DNA of 64,000 bases from a virus (taxonomy: Duplodnaviria; Heunggongvirae; Uroviricota; Caudoviricetes), in IMG/VR virus record IMGVR_UViG_2713896798_000008; one strand, written 5' to 3'. Below are positions 5,967-40,788 of this stretch, one piece after another. Under the pieces are notes generated by a model. It was not told the DNA's origin, searched no databases, and saw only the letters and a list, made by a program, of their open reading frames with translations. Numbering within the stretch: position 1 is the first letter of the stretch; each line of letters starts with the position of its first letter. The translations under genes were made by a program, and so were the position numbers.

Positions 5967-6590
5967 TCATTTTCTTTTCAGCACCAGGCGTAACTGATGC
6001 GTCATGGCTTTCATCATCTGCTCCGGTAATTTTTCCCGGTACATCCTGTCACGCTCACGCTCAAAGGTTTCTGCCAGCGGTTTTGCCGTCGCTATTTTCA
6101 CCACTTCAATTGGCAGGCGGTGACGTTTTGGCCTCCCTTTGCTGTCAATACCGGTAGACAATGAAGCCTGTGGCATACGCTGCATCACATGCCACCGGCC
6201 ATTTGCCAGTCGGGTGATAAACGCATCAGGGATGCGCCGTTTACCCACAATCAGCACACTGCCACCGCCTTTCAGAAATGCGCGCTCACCTTTCTTTCTC
6301 CGCTTGCTTCGGGAAAGCCGCACGCGGGCCTCCCCGAGTTTTATTGCAGGCAGATTACCGGTATTGATGTAAACCTTTGCGTTGACCTTGTCAGCCCGTG
6401 CCCGACTTAAACGGATACGGGCACGGATGAGACGGCGTGGAACCGCCAGTTCACGGGCAACAGAAGAAGCCGTTTTCGCGATGATGGACTCCGCCACACG
6501 GTTAAGCGTGGTGGCTGCCGCACGGGGAACGGCACGGCGATCCAGCGCATCAAGATTTCGCATAGCCTGAGCCATTCCCTTTATCGCCAT
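5967..6590 (-). CDS. Z: Tail completion protein Z family
   Basis: 207-aa basic protein with RRKKG...KGGGSV...GRWHVMQR motifs, position between head-tail connector and U. Confidence 0.75.
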   Translation of the reverse strand: MAIKGMAQAMRNLDALDRRAVPRAAATTLNRVAESIIAKTASSVARELAVPRRLIRARIRLSRARADKVNAKVYINTGNLPAIKLGEARVRLSRSKRRKKGERAFLKGGGSVLIVGKRRIPDAFITRLANGRWHVMQRMPQASLSTGIDSKGRPKRHRLPIEVVKIATAKPLAETFERERDRMYREKLPEQMMKAMTHQLRLVLKRK

Positions 6591-7280: not shown

Positions 7281-9260
7281 TCAGGCCACCGACGAACGCA
7301 CCAGTCCACGCCAGTCTAGCGGTGCCACACCGGCATCAATGCGGATTTTTGTGGCAATGCCGTCAGTGGTGAAACCTTCCTGCTGATCAATGTATGGCGT
7401 GTCCACCCCATCCAGCCAGGCCACTTCAATGGTGTCGGTGCCCTGTGCCGCCGCCAGATACCAGGTTTTCGGATCTGCCGCATCAAGACGCGCTTCTGCA
7501 ATCACCTCAGCAAAGTTCTGGATGGGGTTAATGACACCGGCGTTTGCATCAGCCCCTTTCACACTGGCCGATTTGATGGTCTGGTTCGCCACCGTCTCCA
7601 GTGCCACAGGGACCAGCATGAAGGCCGGGCGGATATTCAGGGCACGATCGCCTTCTTTCTGCAGGCGCATCATCTGACGGGCCGCATCCAGTCCGGAAAC
7701 GGAGATCCCCCCGGTGGCAATATTTTTGTGATCGGCATGGAACAGCGCCTTACCGTCTGACAGTTTCGGGTTATCCGTCAGCACCTTGTAAACCAGGTCA
7801 CCAATCGTTGCCTTCGCCGCACGCCCCATCTTCATCGGCACGTCAACCAGCATATTCAGATCATCATTGATAATGGCCTGGCGGGTGATGGAGAAAATCT
7901 CCCCGTAGGTGGCCAGTGCAATGGTCTCCTTGCGATCTGAGGTGGTGATGTATTTATACTCCGCTCCCTCACGCACCTGACGCAGCGAACCAAAACCGCC
8001 CATGCCCACGCGATATGCAGTTTTGAAGTCTGACAGGCGTCCCTTACGGGTCCACTTCTGGAAGGTTTCTTCTGATTCCTCCCAGCCCTGGATCAGCCCC
8101 TTGTTCGACACATCCAGCAGGATATTGCCAAAATCAGAGGTGCTGTGCGTCAGCGCCAGCCCGACCATCTGCATGGGGTTATAACTGGCCATCCCAATAC
8201 CGCGCTCCGTCAGTGACATGCGAGCCCATTCACGCAGGGTCATCCCGTTATAGACGTTATCCTTCTCGATATTTTCAAATCCGGCACGGGCCAGCATCGC
8301 CTGGCGGATCCCGTCTCCCACAAAATTGCCGTTTCCGGCATAAATATGGGCCGGTGTGTTTTTGTTGGTCGGCGAGGACTCCTTGCCCATTTCATTCAGA
8401 AGGCGCTCGCGGGCCATTTCCAGCGAACAGTCAGGATCGGCCACACACTGCGCCTGAAGCGCCTGATAGCGCCCGCCAAACATGGCAAACAGATCGTTAA
8501 TGCCTGACATGCGGGCTTTCTGCTCAGCCATAACGCGGGCGCGAATGGTCGCCTCATCAGACACTGCCGGTACCGGTGATGGTTCTGTTACCGCCGGTGC
8601 AGGGATTGTCACTGTGGTATCACGCGGGGCACTGTTGCGTGGCGGAGTAATCATGTTTCGGATGGATTCCGGCATCTTTTTAAATTCCTCTGTACGTTTT
8701 GACTGAATACATGCCATTGCCTTAACAGCGGGTGTCACCTGGTCAGCAAATCCGTGTGCCAGACATTCAGCACCGGACATCCAGGTTTCATCCGCCAGCA
8801 TGGCGGCAATTTCATCGGTGGTTTTTCCGGTTTTCTGCGCATAGGCTGGCAACAGTACCGATTCGACTTTATCCAGCAAATCGGCATAACTGCGCATATC
8901 CTCAGCATCCCCGCCACTGAATCCCCATGGCTTATGGATCATCATGAAGGCATTTTCCGGCATAATGACCGTATCACCGGCCATCGCAATCACGGATGCC
9001 ATCGAGGCGGCAACGCCATCCACATACACGGTAATGGTCGCCCCCTGATTTTTCAGGGCATTAAAAATGGCGATGCCTTCAAAGACATCGCCACCCGGTG
9101 AATTGATATGGAGATTAATGTGGGTGATATCACCAAGTGCATTCAGTTCGCTGACAAACTGCTTCGCGGTAACGCCCCAGAAACCAATCTCATCATAAAT
9201 ATAAATATCTGCGTCACCCGGCCCCCCAGCCTGCATCCTGAACCAGGATTTATTCTTCAT
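7281..9260 (-). CDS. Prohead protease (ClpP/S49-like) fused to HK97-fold major capsid protein
   Basis: Start at ATG 9260 (MKNKSWFRMQAGG...) just after the portal stop; N-terminal serine-protease motifs (GVAASMAS, MIHKP), C-terminal capsid-like region; longer track ORF overlaps portal. Confidence 0.8.
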   Translation of the reverse strand: MKNKSWFRMQAGGPGDADIYIYDEIGFWGVTAKQFVSELNALGDITHINLHINSPGGDVFEGIAIFNALKNQGATITVYVDGVAASMASVIAMAGDTVIMPENAFMMIHKPWGFSGGDAEDMRSYADLLDKVESVLLPAYAQKTGKTTDEIAAMLADETWMSGAECLAHGFADQVTPAVKAMACIQSKRTEEFKKMPESIRNMITPPRNSAPRDTTVTIPAPAVTEPSPVPAVSDEATIRARVMAEQKARMSGINDLFAMFGGRYQALQAQCVADPDCSLEMARERLLNEMGKESSPTNKNTPAHIYAGNGNFVGDGIRQAMLARAGFENIEKDNVYNGMTLREWARMSLTERGIGMASYNPMQMVGLALTHSTSDFGNILLDVSNKGLIQGWEESEETFQKWTRKGRLSDFKTAYRVGMGGFGSLRQVREGAEYKYITTSDRKETIALATYGEIFSITRQAIINDDLNMLVDVPMKMGRAAKATIGDLVYKVLTDNPKLSDGKALFHADHKNIATGGISVSGLDAARQMMRLQKEGDRALNIRPAFMLVPVALETVANQTIKSASVKGADANAGVINPIQNFAEVIAEARLDAADPKTWYLAAAQGTDTIEVAWLDGVDTPYIDQQEGFTTDGIATKIRIDAGVAPLDWRGLVRSSVA

Positions 9261-10752
9261 GCTGGCTTTCGGTGTCGCGCTGATGCTGTCGTTCAGTTCC
9301 GGCACTGTTTCCTCCTTTATCGTTGACGGGGTCAGTATCAAAGACCAGCCCCAGTCTGCTGTTTTCATCAATTTCAGCCTTGCGGCGACGTTTGACCTCA
9401 TCCGGATTGCGCCCTCCGGCCCGAACCCAGTCGGATTCTGTCGCTGCACCACCCCGGATCTGAATTCTCCAGGCTTCAGCTTCCTTAACCGGATCGATCC
9501 ACGGCATCACCGGACCGGAATACGTCGCGTTATATAGCGTTTTCATCTCCACATCTGCCGGAATTTTCAGCAGACCTGCCGCAACCACCATATTCAGCCA
9601 TGTCCGGTACACAGGGCGGGTTACCGCGCCAATAAAACAGTCCTGCAGGATCAGATACCCGTCGGTGGACTCGACCAGCTCCTGCCGCTGGGCACTGTAG
9701 GTACCGTTATAGTTACGCGCCGCACTGGAAAAACTCAGACGACTGCCTGCAGCTACTGCACGCAGCTGACCGTTACGAAAGGTTTCAAGATTGGGGTTAG
9801 GACGGTCAGATTTGACCATGCCGATATCCTCGCCCTTGCGCAAATCGTCATAAATAATACCCGGGGTGATATGGACTTCCCGCTCGGTCTCTTTGATCCC
9901 AGGATCTTCATAGTCCTGCCCGTCCCCTTTACGGATATACAGTCCCAGCGCCGCAGCAATACGCGCTGCCGTCAGTTCCGCATCCTCATACTCCTTAAGG
10001 GCACTGATCCGCATCAGCACCCCCGATAACATGGATGAGCCTCGCGTCTGATGCAGACGACGAGTGAACTTCAGGTGGATCATTTTTCCGGCAACGATTT
10101 CTTTCGTATCACTCTGCCGGCCGCTGACCGGATAATTTTTATAAACCAGATATTTTTTCGGTCTTCCCCACTCATCAAGAAAAACCCCCTGATTCAGCCC
10201 GGCGGATTCATCACTGCGCATGGGAACAAAATCCGGCTCCATCGCTTCAAGCCAGAATGGCACTCCCGCCGTCCGTTCCAGACCATTTCCCGCCCCACTG
10301 ACCATCTGCGCAAACACTTCACCATCCCGCAGCCAGGTCCGCAGCAGTAAACGCTCAAGCACGGGACGGGTATACTGCCCTGTCACATCCGGACTGACCG
10401 ACCATTCAGCCCACAACCGGCGGATATCCGCAGCCAGCTCTGCCGCCATTTCCCCGTTTTTTCGTAATGGCTGAGGCTCCACAATAATTCCCCTGGCACC
10501 AATCACCCGCTCTTCAAGCTTGTCAAACACACCAATCACCAGGTCATGATTGATATCCAGAAAACGGGCCTGCTCCCGCAGGGAAACCGCACCGTATTTA
10601 CTGAGCTGATCAGCAGAGCGATTTTCCCGCCGGGCTTTATGTGTCCGGGTCGTTTTCACCGCCTCATAGGCCATGATTAATGCCCTTGAACGCAGTCTGG
10701 CTGCTTTCCATCCGGGGGAAAACACGCCTATCACATCATCGATAATTGCCAT
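9250..10752 (-). CDS. Portal protein
   Basis: 500-aa ORF between terminase and protease/capsid, acidic C-terminal tail. Confidence 0.85.
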   Translation of the reverse strand: MAIIDDVIGVFSPGWKAARLRSRALIMAYEAVKTTRTHKARRENRSADQLSKYGAVSLREQARFLDINHDLVIGVFDKLEERVIGARGIIVEPQPLRKNGEMAAELAADIRRLWAEWSVSPDVTGQYTRPVLERLLLRTWLRDGEVFAQMVSGAGNGLERTAGVPFWLEAMEPDFVPMRSDESAGLNQGVFLDEWGRPKKYLVYKNYPVSGRQSDTKEIVAGKMIHLKFTRRLHQTRGSSMLSGVLMRISALKEYEDAELTAARIAAALGLYIRKGDGQDYEDPGIKETEREVHITPGIIYDDLRKGEDIGMVKSDRPNPNLETFRNGQLRAVAAGSRLSFSSAARNYNGTYSAQRQELVESTDGYLILQDCFIGAVTRPVYRTWLNMVVAAGLLKIPADVEMKTLYNATYSGPVMPWIDPVKEAEAWRIQIRGGAATESDWVRAGGRNPDEVKRRRKAEIDENSRLGLVFDTDPVNDKGGNSAGTERQHQRDTESQHEE

Positions 10753-15307: not shown

Positions 15308-15868
15308 TTATATACGTCCTTTAAGATAAGTCAGTCCTGGATGAAACCAGTAAGCCGGCACTTTTTTAAAGGGCGGGTTGTCAAACTCACGAAGAAGAGC
15401 CTCCCGCACAACTGCATCCTTGTCAGCACCACTGGCCAGCGCTTCAATCTCAGCAGCTATCTGCAGATATCCCATGCAACGACCAATGCACTTCATCAGC
15501 CCCTGCTTTTTATTGTTCTTCAGGTAATCAATGGCAAATTCAATGAGCTCCTCACTATGCTGGTGCGATGGCGGTGTTACTTTCCCATTTTCTGAGATGG
15601 TTATTTTCCCAGCATCACCGGATACAACAAAGGATGGCCGGTTACACTCCCATTCCAGCTCACTGAAATTATCATTATGAATACTGAAACACTCTGAGAG
15701 ATTTCTGCTCATCACTTTCCGACAATAATCGTCAAACGCAGCAAACTGCTCATCGCGGCGTTTTTTTTCATCTTCAGAAGGCATCAGCGTCGACAGTTTT
15801 TTATTCAGTTCAGCAATTTCATTTTCCAGACGACTGAAGCGCTGATTCATTTCTTCATGGTTCATCAC
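15308..15868 (-). CDS. Hypothetical 186-aa protein inserted between holin and endolysin
   Basis: Intact ORF abutting holin stop; N-terminal coiled coil (NQRFSRLENEIAELNKKLSTL); no family recognised. Confidence 0.5.
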   Translation of the reverse strand: MMNHEEMNQRFSRLENEIAELNKKLSTLMPSEDEKKRRDEQFAAFDDYCRKVMSRNLSECFSIHNDNFSELEWECNRPSFVVSGDAGKITISENGKVTPPSHQHSEELIEFAIDYLKNNKKQGLMKCIGRCMGYLQIAAEIEALASGADKDAVVREALLREFDNPPFKKVPAYWFHPGLTYLKGRI

Positions 15869-16075
15869 CTAATCTCCCCGGGCAGCCTTGCGACGGTCCT
15901 CTTTAATTTTGAAATACAGGTTAGTCAGATACGTCAGCAGGCCAAACAGCAGACTCCCCAGCACACCTATCGCCACCCACTGGGACGGAGAGACTTTGTC
16001 CAGCAGCTGCAGTAACCAGTATCCCGTCCCCACCGCTGACGTGGTGTATGACACACCTGTTGTGATTTTTTCCAT
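15869..16075 (-). CDS. S: Pinholin (phage 21 S-type class II holin)
   Basis: 68-aa [26 protein letters not shown]...[15 protein letters not shown], two TM segments, S21-like. Confidence 0.85.
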
Positions 16076-16521
16076 CCGATGTATGTCTCCGTCACCGCCG
16101 ACAGAAAATGAAAGTAAAGAAAAACAAAAAAACCGCCAGTGTCACCCACTGACGGCCAACTCCGGGAGCCGTGATTATGGCATTCAGGCTCTGCTAAAAA
16201 TGCCAGATAACATTCCGGCCCCCCCCTAGTTCAGGTTATAAATGACACAATATCTTGACAACATCCGTCACTGTCTGTCAGAAAATATACCGCCAGGCAT
16301 AAGTATCATGTGAAATCCAACTATCCTTTTGAGCCAGCACCTCTCCACCGAAAGTCAGTGCTGGCTGTTTTTTTCCTTAATAAAGCATCTGTAACTGAAA
16401 CAATCCGCATATTGATAATATATTGACAGGCATCATTGCTGTCTGTGAAAAATAAGTCTCTACAAACATATAAGGCCTTTTAGCCAGCGTCTTCTTTCAG
16501 GTCAGCCGCTGGCTTTTTTTA

Positions 16522-18423
16522 TTATGCTGCCGGTGCATTTATCTCCAGCACCAGACTTTCTATCTCAACGCCATACGCTGCATTTTTTGTAACATCCGTC
16601 AGCGTCAGCGCATTCAGCCCCAGTGTCAGACTGTCTTTTATGACCTGGAATGCCGGGCCAGCCACTCCATTCAGTTTCGGAGTAACCGTGGCACTGCCGG
16701 CGGTGAACACCAGCTCCAGCGTCTGCCAGTCGTTACCGTAATCGCCGAACTCCCCCAGCTTCGTGTTTCCGGCTTTCCTGTGATGCATCAGATTCACTCT
16801 GCCGTCAGTGGTCTGAGTGAAGTACGACATCAGGAACGGATTACCGGTACCCGTCATCGCCACACCATCAGGAACGGGAGCATCCGTATACAGATAAATC
16901 CCCAGCCCGAACTGATTGTTGGTCAGTGCGCCTGACAGGCGGAACTTACAGGTCAGTCTGCCGCCCTGTGTCAGCAGGGTAATTGCGTCATCCACCGGAT
17001 GCGTCAGGGACCAGGTTTTATTGCTCTGCTTGGTGATCTTAAATACACCATCTGACAACTGAATTCCGCCATCCTTAATGCTCCAGCCCTGCGCAGCAGC
17101 CTCTCCGGCTGCCGGCAGCAGGGAGATTGTGCGAACGGACGTATCTGCAGACGGACCCGATGGCGTGTTGCCGCCGGGCGAGGGTTTGATTTCCGGTGCC
17201 TTACCACTGATGAAGGCTGAGGTGCGCCCGGCTGCGTTCAGAATAGCGGTTGCCATACGATCCGGAATAATGCTCCTGCGCGCCCATGAACTGAAATGTG
17301 TCGGGCGGTTTGATGATACCTGGTTTCCATTCGTTCTCGATGCCGCACCGTAATATCCTGATGCCGGAATATCCGGATCTTCTGCCGGCGCGTTAGTGGC
17401 GGTATTGACGCCGTTACCGTCTGTCATGAAGGGCACAAAATAAACGCCCTCACTCTCCCTGTTTTTATACCCGCCGTACACGGTGTCGTACTGGGTAGCG
17501 TATGTATTTTTCCAGTAATACGTCGTGTCACCACAAATCCACGGCACATCTGCAGCACTGCCACCATGGCACTGCGCGTTAAACACGGAGAGGTCAGCAC
17601 GAAACTGTGTCAGCATGGCTGTAAACAGCGCAGGTTGCTGTGCGTGGGTGGCGGCGCTCATGTCAAACTCTCCCTGCATCCAGCACACCGCCAGCAACAC
17701 ATTTTTCGGGTTCTTCTGTAATGCAGCTTTGGTGCGCGCAATCAGGTCCTGATATAACGGTTTACCCACACCCCAGCGCGCCGAATCCTGGCTGGCCCCC
17801 GTGTCCGCACTGAATGTCCCCTCCGCGCCCTGGGTAAATGCCGAACCACCACGACAGCATGGTACCAGCAGGATCCCCGCGTTATTCGGGATATACGGGA
17901 GCAGTTTTTTGGCAATATGTAACCCCTGGCCGACACAGCCGTACTGCCCTTTGCTCAGGTCTGCCTTCGGATGATTCAGCGTACTCATATCCTGCACATC
18001 ATGCAGGCAGTGGTCGGCCGGAATAATATCGTTATATCTGCAGGCAGCCCCACCCGGCGTCACTGTACTGCGGCGCGCCAGCTGCTTAATGCGCGGGTCC
18101 GGACGGTCATATGTCTCCGGCAGCGGAAGGCCTTCACCATATGCCATGCCGTTTGACTGCCCCGCCAGAACCACAACAAAGTAATACTCCGGGTCTCTGG
18201 TGGCGCTGATTACTGTGCCTTCTCCATCCGACGGCTTCACCACAACAGGTGTGCTCACATCACCTTCTGCGACAATCGCCTGAATAAGTGCTGCGCCATC
18301 ATCCGTATACGAAGAAAACGGCCCGCCGTATGGCTGCCATCCTTCACGAATTTTTTGAGCAAGCGCATCCGCAAGGTCTGACGGCGACGCCGCCCTGACC
18401 ACGTCATAGTGTTTAAATGCCAT
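16522..18423 (-). CDS. Prophage sialate O-acetylesterase (NanS-p-like, SASA domain)
   Basis: 633-aa ORF with GQSNG esterase motif; position between tRNAs and lysis genes as in EHEC lambdoid prophages. Confidence 0.75.
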   Translation of the reverse strand: MAFKHYDVVRAASPSDLADALAQKIREGWQPYGGPFSSYTDDGAALIQAIVAEGDVSTPVVVKPSDGEGTVISATRDPEYYFVVVLAGQSNGMAYGEGLPLPETYDRPDPRIKQLARRSTVTPGGAACRYNDIIPADHCLHDVQDMSTLNHPKADLSKGQYGCVGQGLHIAKKLLPYIPNNAGILLVPCCRGGSAFTQGAEGTFSADTGASQDSARWGVGKPLYQDLIARTKAALQKNPKNVLLAVCWMQGEFDMSAATHAQQPALFTAMLTQFRADLSVFNAQCHGGSAADVPWICGDTTYYWKNTYATQYDTVYGGYKNRESEGVYFVPFMTDGNGVNTATNAPAEDPDIPASGYYGAASRTNGNQVSSNRPTHFSSWARRSIIPDRMATAILNAAGRTSAFISGKAPEIKPSPGGNTPSGPSADTSVRTISLLPAAGEAAAQGWSIKDGGIQLSDGVFKITKQSNKTWSLTHPVDDAITLLTQGGRLTCKFRLSGALTNNQFGLGIYLYTDAPVPDGVAMTGTGNPFLMSYFTQTTDGRVNLMHHRKAGNTKLGEFGDYGNDWQTLELVFTAGSATVTPKLNGVAGPAFQVIKDSLTLGLNALTLTDVTKNAAYGVEIESLVLEINAPAA

Positions 18424-25001: not shown

Positions 25002-25361
25002 TCACTCTCCTTTGATGCCAATGTTTACAGCCTGGCAGGCCTCTTTGAGCACCCAATCAACGGCATCTTTCCACGCTCCGGTTTCGACTGGCGGATTTTC
25101 ACGCTTAACCTGTTCATAGAAGCGCACTGCTTTAATCAATCCTTCTGGTGTCAGTGGCACAGCCTGGGTCGTAAATAACTCCTGAATTTCATAGTTCGGT
25201 CTGTCGTTGCAATCCTCTTTTGTCGGTACATATTTCCAGTCACCAACCCTCTGCTTCCCCTGAAAGTCTGTAACGTCTTTTTTCACGTAGCGATATCGCC
25301 ATGCCACTGGTTTTGCCTGCCCTGCCGTTTCATGCCCTTCCTGATAATTAATCTCGCTCAT
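25002..25361 (-). CDS. Hypothetical nin-region protein
   Basis: 119-aa ORF in operon context. Confidence 0.5.
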   Translation of the reverse strand: MSEINYQEGHETAGQAKPVAWRYRYVKKDVTDFQGKQRVGDWKYVPTKEDCNDRPNYEIQELFTTQAVPLTPEGLIKAVRFYEQVKRENPPVETGAWKDAVDWVLKEACQAVNIGIKGE

Positions 25362-25534
25362 TCATCGCCCCACTCATCACAATATGCTTCGACCGGAGTT
25401 TTTCCTGCTTCATAGTCATCACGCCATGCTTCAGCATCGGCGGCACTTCCACCGCGTAACTCTGCATAGTCCATTAACAGTTCATGCCATTCTTCAAAAC
25501 TGGCGTTATATTTAGTTGAACCAAAATCAGCCAT
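25358..25534 (-). CDS. Small acidic hypothetical protein (58 aa)
   Basis: MADFGSTKYN...CDEWGDE; ATGA overlap with downstream gene start. Confidence 0.4.
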   Translation of the reverse strand: MADFGSTKYNASFEEWHELLMDYAELRGGSAADAEAWRDDYEAGKTPVEAYCDEWGDE

Positions 25535-25709
25535 TTTGTTCTTCCTCTTCGTCTTTTATTTCGTGATATGAGTAATTGCAGTGGTTAAAGAAAATTTCTT
25601 TTGCTTCGTCATGAATTTCATCAGGTGTTGCGTCATCGTCCACTTCGAATACATCCTCAAAATCTCCACCGGCTATTCCCGTTTCAATAATTATTTTGAA
25701 CTTTCGCAT
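25527..25709 (-). CDS. Small acidic hypothetical protein
   Basis: 60-aa ORF; truncated pseudogene copy present at 59360-59530. Confidence 0.5.
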   Translation of the reverse strand: MRKFKIIIETGIAGGDFEDVFEVDDDATPDEIHDEAKEIFFNHCNYSYHEIKDEEEEQNG

Positions 25710-25856
25710 TTCACTACCGCCCTGCCGGGCGGTCTCCTGATGTTCTGAGGGTGCAGGAATCCCTCCGGTTAAGGATTAAATTTTATTTACAGTGCTGATT
25801 TTAATTATTCAGTTCTGGATTATGCTTTCTCTTTCAACTGCCGTAGTTCCTGGTAA

Positions 25857-26162
25857 TTAATTTCGCTCACTGGTTGCCTCCTGGAAAATAACCGCATGTC
25901 CCAGTTTCTCCGCCAGTGCCAGTTCTGCCTTAGCGCCTGCCGACCGCTGCCAGCCTTTCAGCATATAAACCGCATCCACACAACGAATCATTGCCATGCA
26001 AATATCCATGTAATGTGGCTGAGTCAGCCCGTCCGGAAGTACTGCCGGGTTTAAAACGGTATGCCCTTCCCGTTTCAGCACCTCTTCCGCTTTGTGAAAT
26101 GCCTCGCGGTTAAAATTTTCATATCCCGTCATCGGACCGGCGATATAAACCCTCACCCTCAC
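25857..26162 (-). CDS. DUF4406-like protein (nucleoside 2-deoxyribosyltransferase-like fold)
   Basis: 101-aa ORF MRVRVYIAGPMTGYENFNREAF..., recalled as DUF4406 signature. Confidence 0.5.
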   Translation of the reverse strand: MRVRVYIAGPMTGYENFNREAFHKAEEVLKREGHTVLNPAVLPDGLTQPHYMDICMAMIRCVDAVYMLKGWQRSAGAKAELALAEKLGHAVIFQEATSERN

Positions 26163-26413
26163 TCCTGAACCCTCCTGTCGAAATAAACGTAGTTATTCAC
26201 TGCGCCCAACTTCATCCCAAACTTTTCGGCAATTTCCCGTCGGGGTACACCACGCTGATGCAGTTGCCGCGCCAGCTCAATATCACGCTGTGAACATTTG
26301 GCTGACTGGTGATAATCACCCCGTAACATCATGCTGATACCCAGTTCCCGCGCTTTCGTCCTGACGGCTGACTCACTACGGCCAATCAGATAACCGATGC
26401 TTTCGACTTTCAT
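26159..26413 (-). CDS. Small HTH-like protein
   Basis: Start at internal Met MKVESIGYL... to avoid overlap; HTH-like RREIAEKFGMKLGAVNNYV. Confidence 0.4.
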   Translation of the reverse strand: MKVESIGYLIGRSESAVRTKARELGISMMLRGDYHQSAKCSQRDIELARQLHQRGVPRREIAEKFGMKLGAVNNYVYFDRRVQE

Positions 26414-26472
26414 CGTTCCCGCACACTGCCGGAGTATCAGGATTTCAGCCCAGCGCCACTTCTTCCAGCCAC

Positions 26473-27207
26473 TCACCGCTGCTGCTCTCTGGTGGCGGTA
26501 ATATCCCGGAGAATATCCCTGTGTTTGTTCAGTTCCCGTAGCGCAGCACAGACTCGCTCCCACTTCTGAACATCACTTTTCGCCCGGCGCAGCTCGCGGT
26601 TAGCCACATGCAGCGATGGTAGAATCAGGTCATCTGCTTTCGTTTCGGTGACCGATGGCTGTAACTTCACAATGTCTTCCTCGATTTCTGTTTTCATTTC
26701 TTCCTGTGTCGTCGTTTCCTGGACTGGTAACGCAACTCCTGCTGACTGAGGAAAGGCTTTACCATCCGTTTCCGCTGCGGATGCAGCTTCCGGCTCTGCT
26801 GGTAAATTATCGCCCGGCATGCAGTAACGAAATTTACCGCCCTGATTCACGCGAATCAGACGCCCTTTGCTGATTGCCATCGCCAGCGATGAATTCGCCC
26901 GGCGGGAGGTAATTCCGAACATCAGTGCCAGTTCATCCGCCGTTTGTGAGCCATGTTGTTCAATCGCCTCTGTCAGCATTTGCGCTGTCACTTTCGGTAC
27001 CGGTGACACTGGTTCACTTTCACCAGCCTGAATCAGCCACCACATCGAACCCTTGTTATCCGCTTCACCGCGGCGCTTCAGTTTCCACAGTTCGTTGACC
27101 GCCTCTTCACGGCTGATTCCAAGGCGCGATGCCACTACCTGTGAAGAGGCTTTTTTCAGTGCTTTCAGTGCGTCAAATACGGTTTCCATTAAAACGTCCT
27201 CCGACAA
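26473..27207 (-). CDS. Hypothetical protein following replication genes
   Basis: 244-aa ORF, acidic central linker, possible winged-helix modules. Confidence 0.5.
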
Positions 27208-27210
27208 AAA

Positions 27211-27957
27211 TTACTTCACAACCCTCTGATTGCTGACATTTGGACGCCAGCTATCCCAGTTAAACGTCACCCATCGACCACCGTTCATGGTCATGCGGTC
27301 CATAATCCTCTCACCGAGAAGCGTACTCATTGCGGCATGATTCAGGTTTGTTAACATCCCGACACTGCACAGTGATGCTGTCCGGCGATCAATTATCTGG
27401 TGCAATACCACCTGCTCGTTTTTCGTCTCACGCTGAACGCCTATTTCATCCAGGACCAGCAAATCAACCCCGCAAAGCTCCTGTAAAAATTTTTCCCCGG
27501 ACTGGCCGTTGTCGTAGCTGTCATGCAACACACTCATGACGTCAGACACGGTGACGATAATCACGCTGCTCCCCTTCGCCATCAGCCGGTTGCCCATCGC
27601 CGCTGCAAGGTGATTTTTCCCGGTGCCGGTTTTACCGCTGAACACAAAATTCGTGCACCCGGTCATCAGTTCGTCAGCGATGGATTTTGCCTGGCTCAGC
27701 GCGTGTTTTTGCCCGTCGTTCTGCACCTGATAATTCGCAAACGAGCATTTGCTGTGCAGAGGCTGGATGCCCGAACGATTCAGGATTTTTTCCACCCGCA
27801 ACTGGCGATTCTGGCGGTTAATCTCCTCGCTGCGTTTTCGTCCTTCAGCAAGCTGCCATTCCCGCCACTCCTCCACCGTCCGGTACGGTGGAACCGCCCC
27901 CTGTGGTGCAAGTCTGCGAATACGTTCAAGAACCCCGGCTGCCGCAATGTTTTTCAT
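27211..27957 (-). CDS. DnaC-like replication helicase loader (IstB-like ATPase)
   Basis: Walker A GKTGTGKNHLA and Walker B LLVLDEIG. Confidence 0.85.
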   Translation of the reverse strand: MKNIAAAGVLERIRRLAPQGAVPPYRTVEEWREWQLAEGRKRSEEINRQNRQLRVEKILNRSGIQPLHSKCSFANYQVQNDGQKHALSQAKSIADELMTGCTNFVFSGKTGTGKNHLAAAMGNRLMAKGSSVIIVTVSDVMSVLHDSYDNGQSGEKFLQELCGVDLLVLDEIGVQRETKNEQVVLHQIIDRRTASLCSVGMLTNLNHAAMSTLLGERIMDRMTMNGGRWVTFNWDSWRPNVSNQRVVK

Positions 27958-27963
27958 GCCACG

Positions 27964-28947
27964 TCACCCCCTGAATCCAGGCGGTATTTCAGTGTCCGGT
28001 TCAGAAATGTGATTCACGCAACGATGCTCGGGCGAACGCCCCAGGCGGATAACCAGTTCATCCCATTTTTCCCGGAGTTTTGCCGGACTCATGATGTTTT
28101 TTACCCAGAACGAATCCCGCTGGACACGCCCAAACATTTCACAAATCTGCCGGTGACTACGTCCATCCAGCATACGCATCATGCGCACATCATTCGCCCA
28201 GGTCGTCCAGTTAGGTTCTCGGGGGCGTGACACCTCACCATCATCACTGGCGGCCTGTTCATACAACGCCACAACCCGTCCCCAAATCCACTGCGCACAG
28301 GCGACATCCTCACGGGTACCCCACTGTCGCTTCGGTACATTCCAGGTATGCGCATCCGGGTGTTTCTCCAGAAATCGCTCAACTGGTGATGATTGTTTTT
28401 CGTCCGGCAGTGAAAGGTCCGGACAAGAAGATCTTTTATCTGACGGATCAGGTTTTAATACTGACGGATCGGGGTCAATCATCGCCCCCCTAATCGGCAG
28501 TTTTTTATCAACCGTTGATCCATCAAAATTTGACGGGTCAACCGTTGAGGGGTCAATATTTGACGGGTCAACTATTAACGGGTCATTTTTTGCCGGGCTA
28601 ATTTTTCTTTTCGGTTTATATGACTCACGCGCCGCCGCCGCAGCTGCTTCGAGTTTTTCCACATTAAGCCGATAGATATTGCTTACATTACGCCCACCGA
28701 CCTTACGCTCTTCCTTCGTCAGCCAGCCCTCTTTCGCCAGTTCTGCAATAGCCGATTTCACGGTGGATTCACTTCTTGCACCGATCTGACGCCGGATAGT
28801 TTCAATAGCAGGCCATGACACGCCCTCGTCATTGCTGTAGTCTGCAAGACGGGCCATCACTGCCACCCGGGATAAGATCATGCCGGTGAAGGCGCATCCT
28901 TCCCAGACAAGACCATGAAGCTTGCTGCTCATAAAACCCCCGAACAC
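27964..28947 (-). CDS. Replication initiation protein (lambda O-like) containing ori iterons
   Basis: 327-aa ORF with N-terminal HTH and internal DPSNIDPSTVDPSNFDGSTVD repeats encoded by DNA iterons. Confidence 0.75.
   Translation of the reverse strand: MFGGFMSSKLHGLVWEGCAFTGMILSRVAVMARLADYSNDEGVSWPAIETIRRQIGARSESTVKSAIAELAKEGWLTKEERKVGGRNVSNIYRLNVEKLEAAAAAARESYKPKRKISPAKNDPLIVDPSNIDPSTVDPSNFDGSTVDKKLPIRGAMIDPDPSVLKPDPSDKRSSCPDLSLPDEKQSSPVERFLEKHPDAHTWNVPKRQWGTREDVACAQWIWGRVVALYEQAASDDGEVSRPREPNWTTWANDVRMMRMLDGRSHRQICEMFGRVQRDSFWVKNIMSPAKLREKWDELVIRLGRSPEHRCVNHISEPDTEIPPGFRG
28441..28625. repeat. Replication origin: iterons (TGACGGGTCAAC-like) followed by AT-rich tract
   Basis: At least five related direct repeats at 28441-28600 then ATTTTTCTTTTCGGTTTATA, inside O-like gene as in lambda ori. 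Confidence 0.6.
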
Positions 28948-28954
28948 CGTGCAG

Positions 28955-29380
28955 TTAGTGCATCACCACGGCATTTCCTGCCGGGCCGCCGCGATTCATC
29001 TGGTCATACAAAACAACCGCTGACGCAACAAAATCGTCGACATCTTTCACCAGCCGATCCCGCCGTTCGACGATCTCACGGTAATACTCAGAACTGTGGC
29101 TGCGCATACGGGCCACCAGCAAAGGCGGCATCGCCTTTTCGATCGCTGGTAACAGAGCCTGAATTTTTTCAACAGCATCAGGGGTGTCTTTATCCAGCCA
29201 ACGGAAAATTTTCTGGGTATTACGGGCCAGGGCTTCCGGATGACTGTCGTCGTACAGTTCCGGGAACGTCATCCCCAGCTCGAAATACGCTTTGGTAATT
29301 TTCGCAGCCGGTACTTTTTCGCCGTCCGGATGCGCCCAGGCATTCATCGCCATGCGGATGTGTTCATGCTTGATTTTCAT
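28955..29380 (-). CDS. YdaT-like/CII-like early regulator
   Basis: 141-aa ORF MKIKHEHI..., Rac YdaT-like; position after cro-like gene. Confidence 0.6.
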   Translation of the reverse strand: MKIKHEHIRMAMNAWAHPDGEKVPAAKITKAYFELGMTFPELYDDSHPEALARNTQKIFRWLDKDTPDAVEKIQALLPAIEKAMPPLLVARMRSHSSEYYREIVERRDRLVKDVDDFVASAVVLYDQMNRGGPAGNAVVMH

Positions 29381-29604
29381 GAATCATTTTTCCTTTCGTT
29401 CGAGGTGTTATCCTTCTTTTTGTAAAGTTCTGGGTTCAACGATAATTTTCCCTTGGAGTATGCAACTGCTTCAGCAGCCCTCCCCTTGGGAACTATTTCG
29501 CCGGGACGCTTACGCCACATGTATATAGCTTCTCGGGTTACCCCATAAAAATCAGCGACTCTTTGGACAGAACCAAAAAACTGGACAAGTTCATCAACTC
29601 GCAT
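29377..29604 (-). CDS. Cro-like HTH regulator (YdaS-like)
   Basis: 75-aa ORF divergent from cI with AAGGAGG SD. Confidence 0.65.
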   Translation of the reverse strand: MRVDELVQFFGSVQRVADFYGVTREAIYMWRKRPGEIVPKGRAAEAVAYSKGKLSLNPELYKKKDNTSNERKNDS

Positions 29605-29632
29605 TTCGCCCTCCTTAAAACTAAGTATTTTT

Positions 29633-29660
29633 AGATTAAAGGGTAATTTTTTTTAGGTCA
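29633..29660 (-). promoter_or_regulatory. pR-like promoter (TTGACC-17-TAATCT) with operator palindrome CTAAGTATTTTTAG
   Basis: Hexamers read on minus strand in the cI-cro intergenic region; palindrome at 29621-29634. Confidence 0.45.
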
Positions 29661-29703
29661 ATACAATCTAAAATAATTTATATTCAATTCGCGGGAGAAA
29701 ATA

Positions 29704-30348
29704 ATGGAAAGCCTTGGCATTAGGCTTAAGAAACTCAGAAAAGACAAAGGTCTGACCCAAGTTGAACTTGGCAAGCTTTCTGGCGTAACTGGGGTAACAA
29801 TAGGATACTGGGAGAAAGATCTAAACGAACCAGGTAGCAAAGCTCTTAGTAAATTAGCCCTAGCACTAGGCACTACTGAGTCCTATCTCCTGTATGGAGT
29901 ATCATCACCTGAATCATCCCTTGTGCAGAAAAATCCAGGTATCCAAATCCCATACCTTTCTTGGGGAGAAGCGATTTCTTTCCTAATATTAAAAGGAGAG
30001 AAAACTATGGGAAATGTCGACAGGATCACCACATTCTTTGATGTCAAGGAGGGAGATTTTGCCGTTTCAATGCCTGATGATACTATGCACAATCCATCAG
30101 GGTCCCCAAGCATTCCAGTTGGAGCCACAGTGATCATGAGGCCTAGCGAAAAATATAAAAATGGTAGCATCGTCGCAGTAATAGTCCCAGATCCACTCAC
30201 AAACGAACCATCCATGACTATAAAAAAATTAGTTATTGATGGAAAGCTCGTGTACTTAGCCCCCCTTAACCCACGCTATCAATCATCCTTACTTACACCG
30301 GAATGTAACATCGTTGCTGTAGCAAAAGGTGTTCAGTTCAGCCTCTAG
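29704..30348 (+). CDS. CI-like repressor (HTH_XRE N-domain plus S24 LexA-like peptidase C-domain)
   Basis: 214-aa ORF; HTH LTQVELGKLSGVTGVTIGYWE; C-terminal S24 fold with Ser/Lys dyad context. Confidence 0.85.
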   Translation: MESLGIRLKKLRKDKGLTQVELGKLSGVTGVTIGYWEKDLNEPGSKALSKLALALGTTESYLLYGVSSPESSLVQKNPGIQIPYLSWGEAISFLILKGEKTMGNVDRITTFFDVKEGDFAVSMPDDTMHNPSGSPSIPVGATVIMRPSEKYKNGSIVAVIVPDPLTNEPSMTIKKLVIDGKLVYLAPLNPRYQSSLLTPECNIVAVAKGVQFSL

Positions 30349-34435: not shown

Positions 34436-35731
34436 ATGAGAGAAGCTGAAATGAAATATCCGACAGGCGTGGAAAACCATGGAGGGAAATTACGTATCTG
34501 GTTTGTTTATAAAGGTGTAAGAGTCCGGGAAAATCTTGGGGTTCCTGACACAGCAAAAAACAGGCGCATTGCAGGTGAGCTACGCGCCTCTGTTTGTTAC
34601 GCAATAAAAACTGGCGCTTTCGACTATGCAAAACAGTTTCCCGCCTCACACAATCTGGAAAAATTTGGTGAGGCCCGACAAGATTTAACCATAAAAGAAC
34701 TGGCTGAAAAATTTCTGGCACTGAAAGAAACTGAAGTCGCAAAAACGTCACTCAACACGTACCGTGCCGTCATCAAAAATATTCTGAGCATAATCGGTGA
34801 AAAAAATCTTGCATCATCGATTAATAAAGAAAAATTGCTGGCGGTACGTAAAGAGTTACTGACTGGATACCAGATCCCCAAAAGTAACTATATTGTTACA
34901 CAACCCGGGAGATCGGCTGTTACCGTAAATAATTACATGACAAATCTTTACGCCGTGTTCCAGTTTGGTGTTGATAACGGTTATCTGGCAGACAATCCAT
35001 TTAAGGGGATCTCACCATTAAAGGAGTCGAGAACCATCCCGGATCCACTTTCGCGGGAGGAGTTTATCCGCCTTATTGACGCGTGCAGAAATCAGCAAGC
35101 CAAAAATTTATGGTGTGTTTCCGTTTATACTGGGATTCGCCCTGGTGAACTCTGTGCGCTTGGATGGGAAGATATAGATCTGAAAAATGGAACAATGATA
35201 ATCAGAAGAAATCTGGCAAAAGACCGTTTTACAGTACCAAAAACACAGGCGGGAACCAATCGTGTGATTCACCTTATTAAGCCCGCAATCGACGCTCTCC
35301 GGAGTCAGATGGCACTAACGAGACTGAGCAAAGAGCATATCATCGATGTTCACCTCAGAGAATTCGGCAGAACAGAGAAACAAAAATGTACCTTTGTTTT
35401 TCAACCTGAAGTGTCAGCGAAAGTAAAAAATTATGGCGACCATTTTACCGTTGACTCAATAAGGCAGATGTGGGACGCAGCGGTAAAGCGTGCCGGAATC
35501 CGCCATCGCAAATCGTATCAGTCGAGACACACTTATGCCTGCTGGTCGTTAACAGCAGGAGCTAACCCGGCATTCATTGCAAACCAGATGGGCCATGCAG
35601 ATGCGCAAATGGTGTTTCAGGTGTACGGGAAATGGATGTCAGAAAATAATAATGCGCAGGTAACGCTGTTAAATACACAGTTAAGCGAGTTTGCCCCAAC
35701 CATGCCCCATAACGAAGCGATGAAAAGTTAA
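34436..35731 (+). CDS. Tyrosine integrase (lambda family)
   Basis: 431-aa ORF with catalytic R...HxxR...Y context (RHRKSYQSRHTYACW); about 95 percent identical to copy at 62705-64000. Confidence 0.9.
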   Translation: MREAEMKYPTGVENHGGKLRIWFVYKGVRVRENLGVPDTAKNRRIAGELRASVCYAIKTGAFDYAKQFPASHNLEKFGEARQDLTIKELAEKFLALKETEVAKTSLNTYRAVIKNILSIIGEKNLASSINKEKLLAVRKELLTGYQIPKSNYIVTQPGRSAVTVNNYMTNLYAVFQFGVDNGYLADNPFKGISPLKESRTIPDPLSREEFIRLIDACRNQQAKNLWCVSVYTGIRPGELCALGWEDIDLKNGTMIIRRNLAKDRFTVPKTQAGTNRVIHLIKPAIDALRSQMALTRLSKEHIIDVHLREFGRTEKQKCTFVFQPEVSAKVKNYGDHFTVDSIRQMWDAAVKRAGIRHRKSYQSRHTYACWSLTAGANPAFIANQMGHADAQMVFQVYGKWMSENNNAQVTLLNTQLSEFAPTMPHNEAMKS

Positions 35732-36796: not shown

Positions 36797-37112
36797 TATA
36801 ATAAACTTACTTTTTTATCATTTTTCCACTTTAACAACATTTTGCTCCACTTTTCCACGACCAAACAACTTGAAATCTGGTTAAAATAACACGCAACACT
36901 ATTCTTCTTCCTTGAGTCCGCCCGGAACTCGAAAAACAAACCGAGTTAAAGCCATTTTTCACAAAATCGATTTTGGGTCTCACCAAAGTTACGGGGTTGC
37001 ATACGCATTCGTTTATTTTCGAACGTGTACATACAAATATGCACAAAAATAATCAAAATTATTTTCTGAGATGCATTATGATATGAACACCAATTTCGTA
37101 TAGAGTCTCACT

Positions 37113-37703
37113 ATGTCTCGAATTTTTGCTTACTGTCGGATATCAACGCTGGATCAGACCACCGAAAATCAACGCCGGGAAATCGAAAGTGCAGGTTTTA
37201 AAATCAAACCTCAGCAAATAATCGAAGAACACATTAGCGGCTCAGCAGCAACCAGTGAGCGTCCTGGTTTTAACCGGTTGCTTGCTCGCCTGAAATGTGG
37301 TGATCAATTGATTGTGACAAAACTGGATCGCCTTGGTTGTAATGCAATGGATATCAGGAAAACAGTGGAACAACTGACCGAAACAGGTATCAGAGTGCAT
37401 TGCTTAGCATTGGGGGGCATTGACCTGACCAGTCCAACAGGAAAAATGATGATGCACGTAATTTCAGCAGTCGCTGAATTTGAACGAGACCTTTTACTTG
37501 AACGCACTCATTCCGGGATAGTAAGAGCCCGCGGCGCAGGGAAACGTTTTGGTCGACCACCTGTGTTAAATGAAGAACAGAAACAGGTGGTATTCGAACG
37601 AATTAAGTCAGGTGTAAGTATAAGTGCCATTGCCCGGGAATTCAAAACCTCGCGGCAAACCATTTTAAGAGCCAAAGCAAAACTTCAGACACCTGACATA
37701 TAA
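37113..37703 (+). CDS. pin: Serine recombinase, Pin/Gin/Hin DNA invertase family
   Basis: [20 protein letters not shown]... catalytic Ser in RIS, C-terminal HTH. Confidence 0.9.
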
Positions 37704-37800
37704 AAAATAATCTCGGTGTGAGATGCTTTACGTCTTCCAAGCCCCCTTCCTTGCCGTAAATGGAGAGATACATCTAATTATAGAATTTATATGTTTTACC

Positions 37801-38376
37801 CTACGGCAGTGCTGGCCATTCAATATCCGGTGCAGTTGATGTATCAACACGGTTCAGCAACACCCGATACTTTTTCCAGGCTTCCAGCAACAAGGTTTCT
37901 TCCTCCGTTGCGATCTCCAGATCCACAGCATCCTGAAGCGGCGCTATATGCTCACTGGCTATCTGCATCAGGCTGTTTTTTGTTTCTTCCGCCTCCCGGA
38001 TCCGGAACAGTTTTTCTGCTTCCGTATCCTTCACCCAGGCTGTGCCGTTCCACTTCTGATATTCCCCTCCCGGCGATAACCAGGTAACATTTTCCGGTAA
38101 CGGACCGAGTTCAGAAATAAATAACGCGTCGCCGGAAGCCACGTCATAAACCGTTTTACCCCGATGATCTTCAACGAGATGCCACGATGCCTCATCACTG
38201 TTGAAAACAGCCACGAAGCCTGCCGGAATATCTGGCGGTGCAATATCGGTACTGTTTGCTGGCAGACCTGTATGAGGCGGAATATATGCGTCACCTTCAC
38301 CAATAAATTCATTAGTTCCGGCCAGCAGATTATAAATTTTTATGGTCCGTGGTTGTTCACTCATTCTGAATGCCAT
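37801..38376 (-). CDS. Tail fiber assembly protein (Tfa)
   Basis: 191-aa ORF, Tfa-like; adjacent to pin and tail fiber C-terminal fragment. Confidence 0.8.
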
Positions 38377-39955
38377 TACGCAAGCCTCACAATATAGTTA
38401 AATGCGATGTTTTTGACGGTGTTTTCCGCGTTACCAGCAGCGTTAACGGTGATGGTATGTCCATGTGAACCAATCGCAACGGAGTGCGTATGAGCACCAA
38501 TACCGACAGTATGTGCGTGTGCACCTGCGCTTGCAGCAGTACCCGATACAGAGTGCGTATGAGCGCCTGCAGAAGAAGTGTTAACACTGTATTTAGAATA
38601 ATCAGGTGATCCACTTCCCGGAGCACCACTGGAACCACCTGAAACAAATGTCATCGAATGGGTATGTGCACCGGCTGTCCCCATGCATTTACCGCCCGGA
38701 CTGTCAGCCTGTAATTTCCCAGCGCCAGCTGCGTGAAGCGATATGTGGTTTCCGTCGTCCGGGCCGTGCTGACCAACCGCTCACTGCCGTCGTCCGCTGC
38801 CACGGTCAGGCGAAGCATAAAGCTCACCCCCTTCACCACCTTCGGCGTGTCCCAGCGCGCCAGCACCTGGTATTCCCCGCTGTCTGCGGTGACTTCTGCG
38901 GTCAGGTGCTGAACTGCTGGCGGCGTGACACCATTCACCGTGCCGCTCTGGTCACCGTCAAAGTGCGCCCCGTTATCCACGATGGCTTCTTTCTCCGGTA
39001 CATGCTGCACGGCAGTGATGGCATACGTACCGTCATCGTTCTCACGGATACTCACACAGCGGAACAGGCGCTGACGCAGCGTCGGCAGCTTCAGCCCCCA
39101 CACGCTGTACTCGGCAACGCCGTCAGGAACCCGGCTCACTTTCACCTTCACGCCGTCGGTGACGGACTGGACCTCCACGCTCACCGGATTACCCTGCCCG
39201 TCAACCAGGCTTATCAGCGTGGTGCCGGAGGATGGCAGCGTGATTTCACGGTCGAGCGTCAGTGTCCGCGTCTGGCTGTTCACCGCCAGCACGCGCCCGC
39301 CGATGCTGATCCCCGCATAGTCATCATCACAGATTTCAATGACATCACCTGGTACATGGCGAAGCCCTTCGGCACCCACGCTGAAGTCCACGGTCTGCGT
39401 TTCCAGCAGTTCCGTTTTAATCAGCCACAGCCCGGCTCGGTGCGCCTGCCCCCGCCTGGTACAGCCAAAGGCATCCATCTTCGTGACGTTACGACCGTAA
39501 CGGGCAATGGCCTGCGTGTCCTCCACAAGCTCTGTCGCCGTCTCCCAGCCGTTATCCGGGTCAATCCAGTTCACCTCAACGGCATTATGGCGGTCCTTCA
39601 GGGCGCTGAAGCTGTAGCGGAACGGCGCGCCATCATCCGGCATCACCACATTACTGCGGTTATAGGTCCACACCTTATCTGATGGTCGGTCCTGCACGAA
39701 CGTCAGCGTCTGCCCGTTCCATACCGGCATACAGCGCATCGCCGAGCAGAAATCACTGAGAACATCCCACGCCTTACGCTGTGTGGTCAGCCAGGCATTA
39801 CAGGTGATGCGCGGCTCCGTGCCGCCAAAACCGTCCGGCACCGACTGGTCGCAACACTGGCCGATGACATACAGCGCCCATTTATCCACATCTGCCGCAC
39901 CAAGACGTTTACCCATGCCGTAGCGCGGGTGGCTGGAGATCTGTCTCGCTGGCCT
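38376..39955 (-). pseudogene. Tail fiber remnant: lambda J central-domain fragment joined to Stf-type C-terminal GAHTHS-repeat domain, frameshifted near 38651-38684
   Basis: ORF 38651-40018 matches lambda gpJ central region but lacks J N- and C-termini; ORF 38376-38684 carries GAHTHS repeats in another frame. Confidence 0.65.
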
Positions 39956-40166
39956 GCCGCAGTTCTTCAACTTCCCGGCGCAGCTTTTCGTTCTCAATTT
40001 CAGCATCCCTTTCGGCATACCATTTTATGACGGCGGCAGAATCATAAAGCACCTCATTACCCTTGCCACCGCCTCGCAGAACGGGCATTCCCTGTTCCTG
40101 CCAGTTCTGAATGGTACGGATACTCGCACCGAAAATGTCAGCCAGCTGCTTTTTGTTGACTTCCAT
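39909..40166 (-). pseudogene. Nu1 terminase small subunit N-terminal fragment (nohQ-like), fused by deletion to J fragment
   Basis: MEVNKKQLADIFGASIRTIQNWQEQGMPVLRGGGKGNEVLYDSAAVIKWYAERDAEIENEKLRREVEELR matches lambda Nu1 N-terminus then diverges. Confidence 0.8.
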
Positions 40167-40343
40167 TGTTCATTCCACGGACAAAAACAGAGAAAGGAAA
40201 CGACAAAGGCCAAAAAGCCCGCTTTCAGCACCTGTCGTTTCCTTTCTTTTCAGGGGGTATTTTAAATAAAAACATTAAGTTACGACGAAGAAGAACGGAA
40301 ACACCTTAAACCGGAAAATTTTCATAAATAGCGAAAACCCGCG

Positions 40344-40355
40344 AGGTCGCCGCCC
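40344..40355 (-). other. Lambda-type cosN cohesive-end sequence (GGGCGGCGACCT) with flanking cosB/cosQ
   Basis: Plus strand AGGTCGCCGCCC; surrounding 40170-40420 matches reverse complement of lambda genome ends as recalled. Confidence 0.7.
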
Positions 40356-40554
40356 CGTAACCTGTCGGATCACCGGAAAGGACCCGTAAAGTGATAATGA
40401 TTATCATCTACATATCACAACGTGCGTGGAGGCCATCAAACCACGTCAAATAATCAATTATGACGCAGGTATCGTATTAATTGATCTGCATCAACTTAAC
40501 GTAAAAACAACTTCAGACAATACAAATCAGCGACACTGAATACGGGGCAACCTC

Positions 40555-40788
40555 ATGTCAACGAAGAACAGAACCCGCAGAACAACAACCCGCAACATCC
40601 GCTTTCCTAACCAAATGATTGAACAAATTAACATCGCTCTTGAGCAAAAAGGGTCCGGGAATTTCTCAGCCTGGGTCATTGAAGCCTGCCGCCGGAGACT
40701 GTGCTCAGAAAAAAGAGTTTCTTCTGAAGCAAACAAAGAAAAGAGTGACATTACTGAATTGCTCAGAAAACAGGTCAGACCAGATTGA
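40555..40788 (+). CDS. YnfO-like small basic protein
   Basis: 77-aa ORF at Qin-like position next to cos. Confidence 0.5.
   Translation: MSTKNRTRRTTTRNIRFPNQMIEQINIALEQKGSGNFSAWVIEACRRRLCSEKRVSSEANKEKSDITELLRKQVRPD

Follow-up and report, generated by a model that had tools for sequence, protein, structure and literature searches.

Gene content and identity of the region

The region considered here lies at positions 37,801 to 40,166 of a 64,000-nucleotide (nt) stretch of DNA recorded as a Caudoviricetes virus (IMG/VR record IMGVR_UViG_2713896798_000008), the whole of which is called the window. It contains the tail fibre assembly gene tfaQ and fragments of three lambdoid late genes, namely the side tail fibre gene stf, the tail tip gene J and the terminase small subunit gene nu1, and it is flanked by the recombinase gene pinQ and by a cos region. 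The listing of open reading frames (ORFs) and the Pfam scan covered the window from 35 to 43 kb. The features, with their strand where they have one, are the following.

37113–37703, + strand: pinQ, intact small serine recombinase of 196 residues (Pfam Resolvase and HTH_7), annotated pinQ in identical genomes
37704–37800: pinQ-tfaQ spacer, 97 bp between convergent genes, holding one arm (37748–37762) of a proposed crossover-like repeat and the string GCCGTAAATGGAG (37753–37765)
37801–38376, − strand: tfaQ, intact tail fibre assembly chaperone of 191 residues (Pfam Caudo_TAP, 2.4e-43), annotated tfaQ
38376–38677, − strand: stf', last 99 codons and stop of a side tail fibre gene, with GxHxH "His-box" repeats (Pfam Phage_fiber repeat)
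38376–38684, − strand: 102-codon ORF with Phage_fiber repeats (ORF listing and Pfam)
38651–40018, − strand: 455-codon ORF with Phage-tail_3 and Ig_J (ORF listing and Pfam)
38674–38677: J'-stf' junction, 4-nt microhomology, GCTG on the + strand and CAGC in gene sense
38674–39932, − strand: J', central ~420 codons of tail tip protein J (lambda J codons ~281–701; Pfam Phage-tail_3 and Ig_J)
38682–38700: the other arm of the proposed crossover-like repeat, within J'; CATGCATTTACCGCC, which in gene sense encodes ...RAVNAWGQ...
39909–40166, − strand: 85-codon ORF with the start of the Nu1 profile (ORF listing and Pfam)
39930–39932: Nu1'-J' junction, 3-nt microhomology, TGG on the + strand and CCA in gene sense
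39930–40166, − strand: nu1', terminase small subunit codons 1–79, followed by six out-of-frame codons and a stop at 39909
40167–40717: lambda-type cos region, with the cosN 12-mer at 40344–40355

The nu1' fragment matched Pfam Phage_Nu1 with a value of 1.4e-48 over profile positions 1–81 of 164, and the tfaQ block (window 37811–38525) was 93.8% identical to lambda tfa and the 3' end of stf.

By gene order and DNA identity, the region is the eroded late-gene end of the Escherichia coli cryptic lambdoid prophage Qin. The order of genes across it, ynfT-ydfK-pinQ-tfaQ-stf'-J'-nu1'-cos-ynfO-ydfO-gnsB, is that of Qin (ynfT-ydfK-pinQ-tfaQ-...-nu1(noh)-cos-ynfO-ydfO-gnsB-ynfN-cspI-rzpQ-rrrQ), and its DNA is 97.7–100% identical to annotated Qin loci, those of K-12 included. 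A megablast search was run on 5,426 complete E. coli genomes, the set on which all the junction counts given below are based. Identical DNA of other strains was annotated there as ynfT-ydfK-pinQ-tfaQ-(tail fibre, partial)-(J, partial)-(terminase small subunit, partial)-ynfO-ydfO-gnsB-ynfN-cspI-rzpQ, and the Prokaryotic Genome Annotation Pipeline labels the stf', J' and nu1' fragments as partial pseudogenes. The allele is carried by about 25 public complete genomes, at least 23 of which gave full-length matches in a single piece.

The Qin prophage of K-12 (ydfK-pinQ-tfaQ-stfQ-nohA-ynfO-ydfO-gnsB...) has the same flanking gene order as the window, the identity being 98.2% along nu1-cos-ynfO and 97.7% along pinQ-tfaQ with the 3' end of stf. 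However, it displays only one joint, from Nu1 at lambda nt ~719 to stf, which gives a 189-residue NohA and a 320-residue StfQ without any J fragment, whereas in the window Nu1 is cut at codon 79, a 420-codon fragment of J is present and only 99 codons of stf are left.

The Nu1'-J' junction

The original prediction had placed an N-terminal fragment of lambda Nu1 directly against the central part of a J-like protein, with loss of the genes from terminase through tail, and both points were borne out by BLAST comparison with lambda and by alignment of the parental sequences. Window 40355–39930 corresponds to lambda nt 1–427 with 98.1% identity, and window 39932–38671 to lambda nt 16347–17608 with 92.6% identity, the Nu1-side and J-side blocks sharing the three nucleotides 39930–39932. 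With lambda and the less-deleted allele of strain FDAARGOS_1337 as parental sides, the alignment in gene sense was Nu1 ...CTCCAG-CCA-GGGACT and J ...GCTGAC-CCA-CCCGCG, from which the window has ...CTCCAG-CCA-CCCGCG. The joint keeps Nu1 codons 1–79, and J starts at about codon 281. The Nu1 and J frames are offset by 1 at this point, so that Nu1' meets a stop after six further codons instead of continuing into a fusion protein. According to the lambda feature table, 15.9 kb are missing: the rest of nu1, the genes A, W, B, C, nu3, D, E, FI, FII, Z, U, V, G, T, H, M, L, K and I, and J up to codon 280. This joint was found in at most 26 of the 5,426 genomes.

The J'-stf' junction

The J fragment had been thought to change frame at 38651–38684 into a tail fibre C-terminus with GAHTHS repeats. 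Such a C-terminus does lie there in another frame, but it is not part of one J-like gene: a second deletion joint is located at 38674–38677. This was seen in a five-way alignment of the window with J of phages 2H10, lambda and Turner and with the full-length stfR of strain SZQ1, where the identity to J halts, and that to stf begins, around a common CAGC. In gene sense, J ...TGGGGA-CAGC-AGGGCGATCC and stf ...GCTGCTT-CAGC-CGGTGCACATACC give ...TGGGGA-CAGC-CGGTGCACATACC in the window. On the J side, identity to lambda, 2H10 and Turner ends at about window 38671, J' being 94.7% identical to J of 2H10. On the stf side, window 38612–38677 is 100% identical to the 3.35-kb stfR of SZQ1, while identity to stf of K-12 Qin/Rac and of 2H10 spans 37000 to 38567–38589; over the intervening 80–100 nt, the His-box region of stf is present as a different allele.

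At this junction, J breaks off at codon ~701 and is followed, out of frame, by the 99 terminal codons of stf. In comparison with phage 2H10, ~5.1 kb are lost: J is shortened at its end by ~430 codons, lom is gone altogether, and stf lacks its initial ~1,000 codons. Between the J and stf frames there is an offset of 2, and the J' frame closes at 38651. An ATG at 38684–38682, in J-derived sequence, opens the stf frame by chance and produces the 102-codon ORF. The part of stf that remains, 99 codons long, matches the 77 C-terminal residues of the T4 gp37 tip in the crystal structure 2xgf (E = 4.4e-25). As both joints are out of frame, the three fragments nu1', J' and stf' are pseudogenes.

A frameshift inside one gene was ruled out on two grounds: what follows downstream has 100% identity with a full-length stfR, which is a gene of its own, and intact relatives have J, lom and stf as three distinct genes. 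An assembly artefact was ruled out as well, as the joint occurs in 91 of the 5,426 genomes, all of them complete and independently assembled.

The His-box stretch of stf' (window 38590–38670) is unlike the stf genes of K-12 Qin/Rac and 2H10. With gp37 of the T-even (Mosigvirus) phage AV116 it shares 87.7% identity; it is a small mosaic stretch common to lambdoid and T-even fibres. The stfR of SZQ1 sits on a 43-kb circular replicon that resembles a lambdoid prophage.

Intact relatives and nested deletions in other strains

The same module is carried by the intact lambdoid phages 2H10, Turner, mEp460 and Tritos. The recombinase is 99.5% identical, as seen with Turner and 2H10, the 97-bp spacer is the same, and tfa with the stf 3' end is 95–97% identical. 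The difference is that the intact phages keep the full J (3.4 kb), lom and stf (3.35 kb), whereas the window lacks the stretch from mid-J to the end of stf and also that from Nu1 codon 80 to J codon 280.

Among the strains with related Qin alleles, a nested series was found, from which it can be seen that the erosion went step by step. The lambda coordinates retained, from nu1 up to the stf' fragment, are these:

300709: 138–703, 2177–3501, 5294–5626, 9780–10687, 15668–17608, stf'
NCTC9040: up to 703, 2177–3470, 16136–17608, stf'
FDAARGOS_1337: up to 699, 16135–17608, stf'
Window: up to 427, 16347–17608, stf'

The J'-stf' joint is common to all four, and outside the deleted stretches the alleles of NCTC9040 and FDAARGOS_1337 are 100% identical to the window. 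The other joints of the series also share only 2–4 nt. Considering the 91 genomes with J'-stf' against the 26 at most with Nu1'-J', the former joint is the more widespread and probably the older. The Nu1-stf joint of K-12 at lambda nt ~719 is of independent origin.

Copies of insertion sequences (IS) of the IS66 family, IS3 and IS1 occur at differing places in differing Qin alleles. In strain 300709 they lie between nu1 and ynfO and inside ydfO. The varied location of these copies indicates that insertion contributes to the decay of Qin besides deletion. The IS-bearing stretches in the retrieved loci are:

300709 (locus L013): 25169–27784 and 28654–29882
Locus L012: 41064–46070
Locus L001: 3035–3732

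Origin of the two junctions

It is very probable, from the parental alignments and the alleles of other strains, that Qin decayed here by two independent illegitimate deletions, without site-specific recombination by Pin, and that the stf'-tfaQ segment is not invertible. About 21 kb would have been removed from a once complete Nu1-A-...-J-lom-stf-tfa region. The first deletion, with its scar at 38674–38677, would have brought J codon ~701 next to the 99-codon end of stf, and the second, at 39930–39932, Nu1 codon 79 next to J codon ~281. In the lineage of the window, the Nu1'-J' joint would stem from the latest in a nested series of deletions, in which each one took away older joints. We infer this order by parsimony and from the frequencies of the joints. 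Each deletion would have brought together sequences with only 3–4 nt in common, and the route was presumably replication slippage or RecA-independent end joining at short homologies. The intact state of pinQ and tfaQ may mean either that erosion has not yet arrived there or that they are kept by selection.

Three observations on the scars carry this interpretation. Each joint has collinear and distant parents: lambda nt 427 and 16347, 15.9 kb apart, in one case, and lambda nt 17608 and the stf 3' end, ~5.1 kb apart in 2H10, in the other. The parents share CCA and CAGC at the joints, and neither foreign bases nor an IS end nor a recombinase site is present. Finally, less-deleted alleles are found in 300709, NCTC9040 and FDAARGOS_1337. 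Collinear blocks meeting at overlaps of a few nucleotides, together with nested intermediates, are what characterises prophage decay by short-homology deletion, and the window offers no substantive difference from that pattern. This kind of decay reportedly occurs in defective enterobacterial prophages. The process and the prophage are thus both already known, and the segment is an ordinary instance of them.

Two points weigh against this interpretation. The mechanism is read from the scar alone, and overlaps of 3–4 nt would fit other end-joining routes as well. In addition, FDAARGOS_1337 differs from NCTC9040 by the loss of exactly the A'-W-B' block, and both ends of this loss fall within ~3 nt of older junctions, which a model of random breakpoints does not predict. 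The coincidence of these breakpoints may be fortuitous or may mark a hotspot. The older junctions at this loss read GATA/AAGG and GGCTA/CCCG, and a TA(T)CC motif is common to all three sites concerned; the coordinates are 6138–6144 and 7424–7431 in the retrieved locus of NCTC9040 (L002) and 6139–6145 in that of FDAARGOS_1337 (L003), to be compared with 39930–39932 in the window.

In practical terms, the annotation of the region is tidied to three pseudogene fragments and two exactly mapped deletion joints, with no invertible element. The nested Qin series across E. coli is a potential phylogenetic marker, or a small data set on the choice of breakpoints in prophage decay.

A different view of what has survived would be that ydfK-pinQ-tfaQ-stf' is kept for a benefit to the host. 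PinQ could act in trans on an e14-type P segment located elsewhere in the genome, as has been reported for K-12, and the 102-codon ORF (38684–38376) could be expressed and, with TfaQ, perhaps mask receptors or act against phages by analogy with StfE2. The block is spared in every Qin erosion allele seen here, but the product of the ORF would lack most of the fibre, and this view seems improbable.

Very improbable, too, are adjacent deletions mediated by an IS that was lost afterwards. In their favour, copies of IS1, IS3, IS66 and ISNCY are common in and around Qin alleles, and several alleles have near-identical endpoints at lambda nt ~700 and ~16135. Nevertheless, at neither junction is there an IS end, a target duplication or a foreign base; on both sides the phage sequence is collinear and meets in the common 3–4 nt.

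The proposed Pin crossover site and proposed invertible segment

The original prediction had gone further and taken the change of frame to coincide with a Pin crossover-like site, possibly the remnant of a Gin/Pin-type invertible segment of which one variable cassette survives. On this model, the cassette would be the stf'-tfaQ region, and the arms 37748–37762 and 38686–38700 would be degenerate crossover sites. The proximity of pinQ to a fibre C-terminus and its chaperone invites this proposal. Moreover, invertase activity has been reported for PinQ in K-12, where, according to Kirigo et al. (NAR 2025, PMC12529663), it acts in trans to invert the P segment (1797 bp) of e14. In the same work, inversions are reported only in e14. 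The pix repeat of e14, TTGGTTTGGGAGAAGG, is the only reported substrate of PinQ, and what is known of its DNA-binding specificity comes from this study only.

The imperfect inverted copy on which the proposal was founded is literally there, the two arms being complementary at 12 of 15 nt, but the similarity is not above chance. With 15 nt and 80% complementarity, the pair ranks 22nd by length among the 61 inverted pairs that a repeat finder returned from the surrounding 3.5 kb. An equal or better ungapped match to the pin-tfa spacer was given by 13% of the 70-nt windows across the 64 kb, and by 11% of shuffles. It had been set beforehand that no similarity beyond chance would speak against the site, and this is what was found.

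The distal arm has, besides, an ordinary origin. The string CATGCATTTACCGCC is located at 38682–38696, i.e., 5–19 nt to the J side of the J'-stf' junction, and does not coincide with the change of frame. In gene sense it reads GGCGGTAAATGCATG, as part of ...RAVNAWGQ..., and lambda J has GGCGGTAAATGCGTG at the same place, with one substitution, as does J of 2H10. Since lambda has no pin but has this J arm, the arm is ordinary J coding sequence. As to the proximal arm, the alignment of the spacer among the window, Qin and Rac of K-12, and phages 2H10 and Turner had 114 invariant columns out of 116. In the undeleted phages the J arm lies ~5 kb further off and in a different gene; the arms are now ~0.9 kb apart only because of the deletion. 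Nor is there a crossover site at a boundary between constant and variable parts of a fibre: the distal arm is in J, next to an out-of-frame joint.

Searches with the known sites of e14 gave the same picture. The crossover repeats of the P segment of K-12 were recovered as AAACCTTGGTTTGGGAGAAGG and CCTTCTCCCAAACCAACGTTT, 95% complementary and 1797 bp apart. The pattern derived from them (...AAACC-NN-GGTTTGGGAGAA...) had no match in the 64-kb window with up to 3 mismatches. The conserved 16-mer (up to 4 mismatches) and 12-mer (up to 2) had none between 36.8 and 40.3 kb; as a control, the same search returned both e14 sites. These e14-derived patterns matched nothing in Qin and Rac of K-12 or around the tail fibre and pin genes of 2H10 and Turner, e14 itself being found. 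The AAACCNNGGTTT core had five loose matches elsewhere in the window, within chance expectation, and none in or near the region considered here. The inverted repeats near pin in 2H10 and Rac are only 16–27 nt long and 71–94% complementary, and none of them brackets stf-tfa in the way of a G or P segment. Finally, a 200-nt synthetic query with the left junction expected after recombination between the two arms was compared with the genome set. At a threshold of at least 80% query coverage, the inverted junction was found in 0 of the 5,426 genomes, and the query never matched over more than 55% of its length.

The layout of the cassette points in the same direction. There is a single tfa with a single stf C-terminus in the window, not two opposed cassettes, and the free phages 2H10 and Turner are likewise arranged as J-lom-stf-tfa-<pin with a single cassette. 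A single cassette in intact phages means that this is the native state and not the survivor of two. Consequently, the idea of a remnant in which one variable cassette survives is not supported, there being no sites, no second cassette in the intact phages and no inverted forms among the genomes searched, and it can be considered extremely improbable.

Compared with the segments of the Din family (P with pinE in e14, G with gin in Mu, C with cin in P1), the likeness is that a fibre C-terminus and a Tfa-type chaperone stand beside a small serine recombinase, and that the stf and tfa genes are homologous. Din recombinases are ~60–70% identical to one another, whereas PinQ is only 38% identical to PinE of e14. 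Its best relative of solved structure is Gin of Mu (E = 2e-30), with gamma-delta resolvase close behind. Din segments are bounded by two inverted crossover sites of ~26 bp and hold two cassettes, while the window has no such pair of sites and one cassette. The 5' end of a Din recombinase gene abuts its segment; pinE, for example, is divergent from stfE and the P segment, while the 3' end of pinQ faces tfaQ, with which it is convergent. Both orientations of Din segments occur, and no inverted form of the segment in the window was seen among the genomes. The segment lacks every Din-type feature tested: sites, cassettes, in-frame boundary, relatedness and orientation of the recombinase, and occurrence of both orientations.

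Equally hard to credit is an aberrant deletion by PinQ between pseudo-sites in J and stf as the source of the J'-stf' joint, for although serine invertases occasionally act on pseudo-sites and an intact pinQ lies 1 kb away, the breakpoint parents (J ...GGGGACAGCAGGGCG... and stf ...GCTTCAGCCGGTGCAC...) are unlike e14 pix, and at least five other joints of this prophage, many kb from pin, have the same look of short overlaps.

PinQ-type recombinases in free phages

PinQ-type recombinases have at least 98.5% identity across 11 free lambdoid phages, against 38% with PinE, and their genes are convergent to tfa behind a near-invariant 97-bp spacer. As the intact phages have neither nearby inverted repeats nor a second cassette, the native cis substrate of these recombinases, if there is one, is not evident from sequence. 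The pin gene and spacer are located as follows:

Window: 37113–37800
Retrieved loci L009 and L010: 9001–9688 in both
Retrieved locus L008: 5988–6675

Neighbouring features

A scan for promoters and terminators between 36.8 and 40.6 kb gave counts at or under those expected from shuffled sequences.

The Qin remnant still has a complete lambda-type cos junction. Window 40100–40355 corresponds to lambda 257–1, and window 40356–40717 to lambda 48502–48141, both with 98% identity. The cosB part contains a perfect 15-nt inverted repeat (40191–40205 and 40233–40247), whose two copies presumably resemble the Nu1-binding R elements. Packaging of the remnant by a helper phage might still be possible.

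To the left, the Qin gene ynfT adjoins a second lambdoid prophage (window ~1–36000), so that the two form a tandem prophage array. The second prophage contains genes for an excisionase, an integrase (34436–35731), an exonuclease, dicB, cI/cro-like regulators, Q, lysis functions and terminase. In K-12, ydfJ occupies the place of this prophage. In most relatives, including most other carriers of the Qin allele of the window, ydfJ' is directly to the left of ynfT, while the integrase of a lambdoid prophage is found there in the window and in strain SCPM-O-B-9504.

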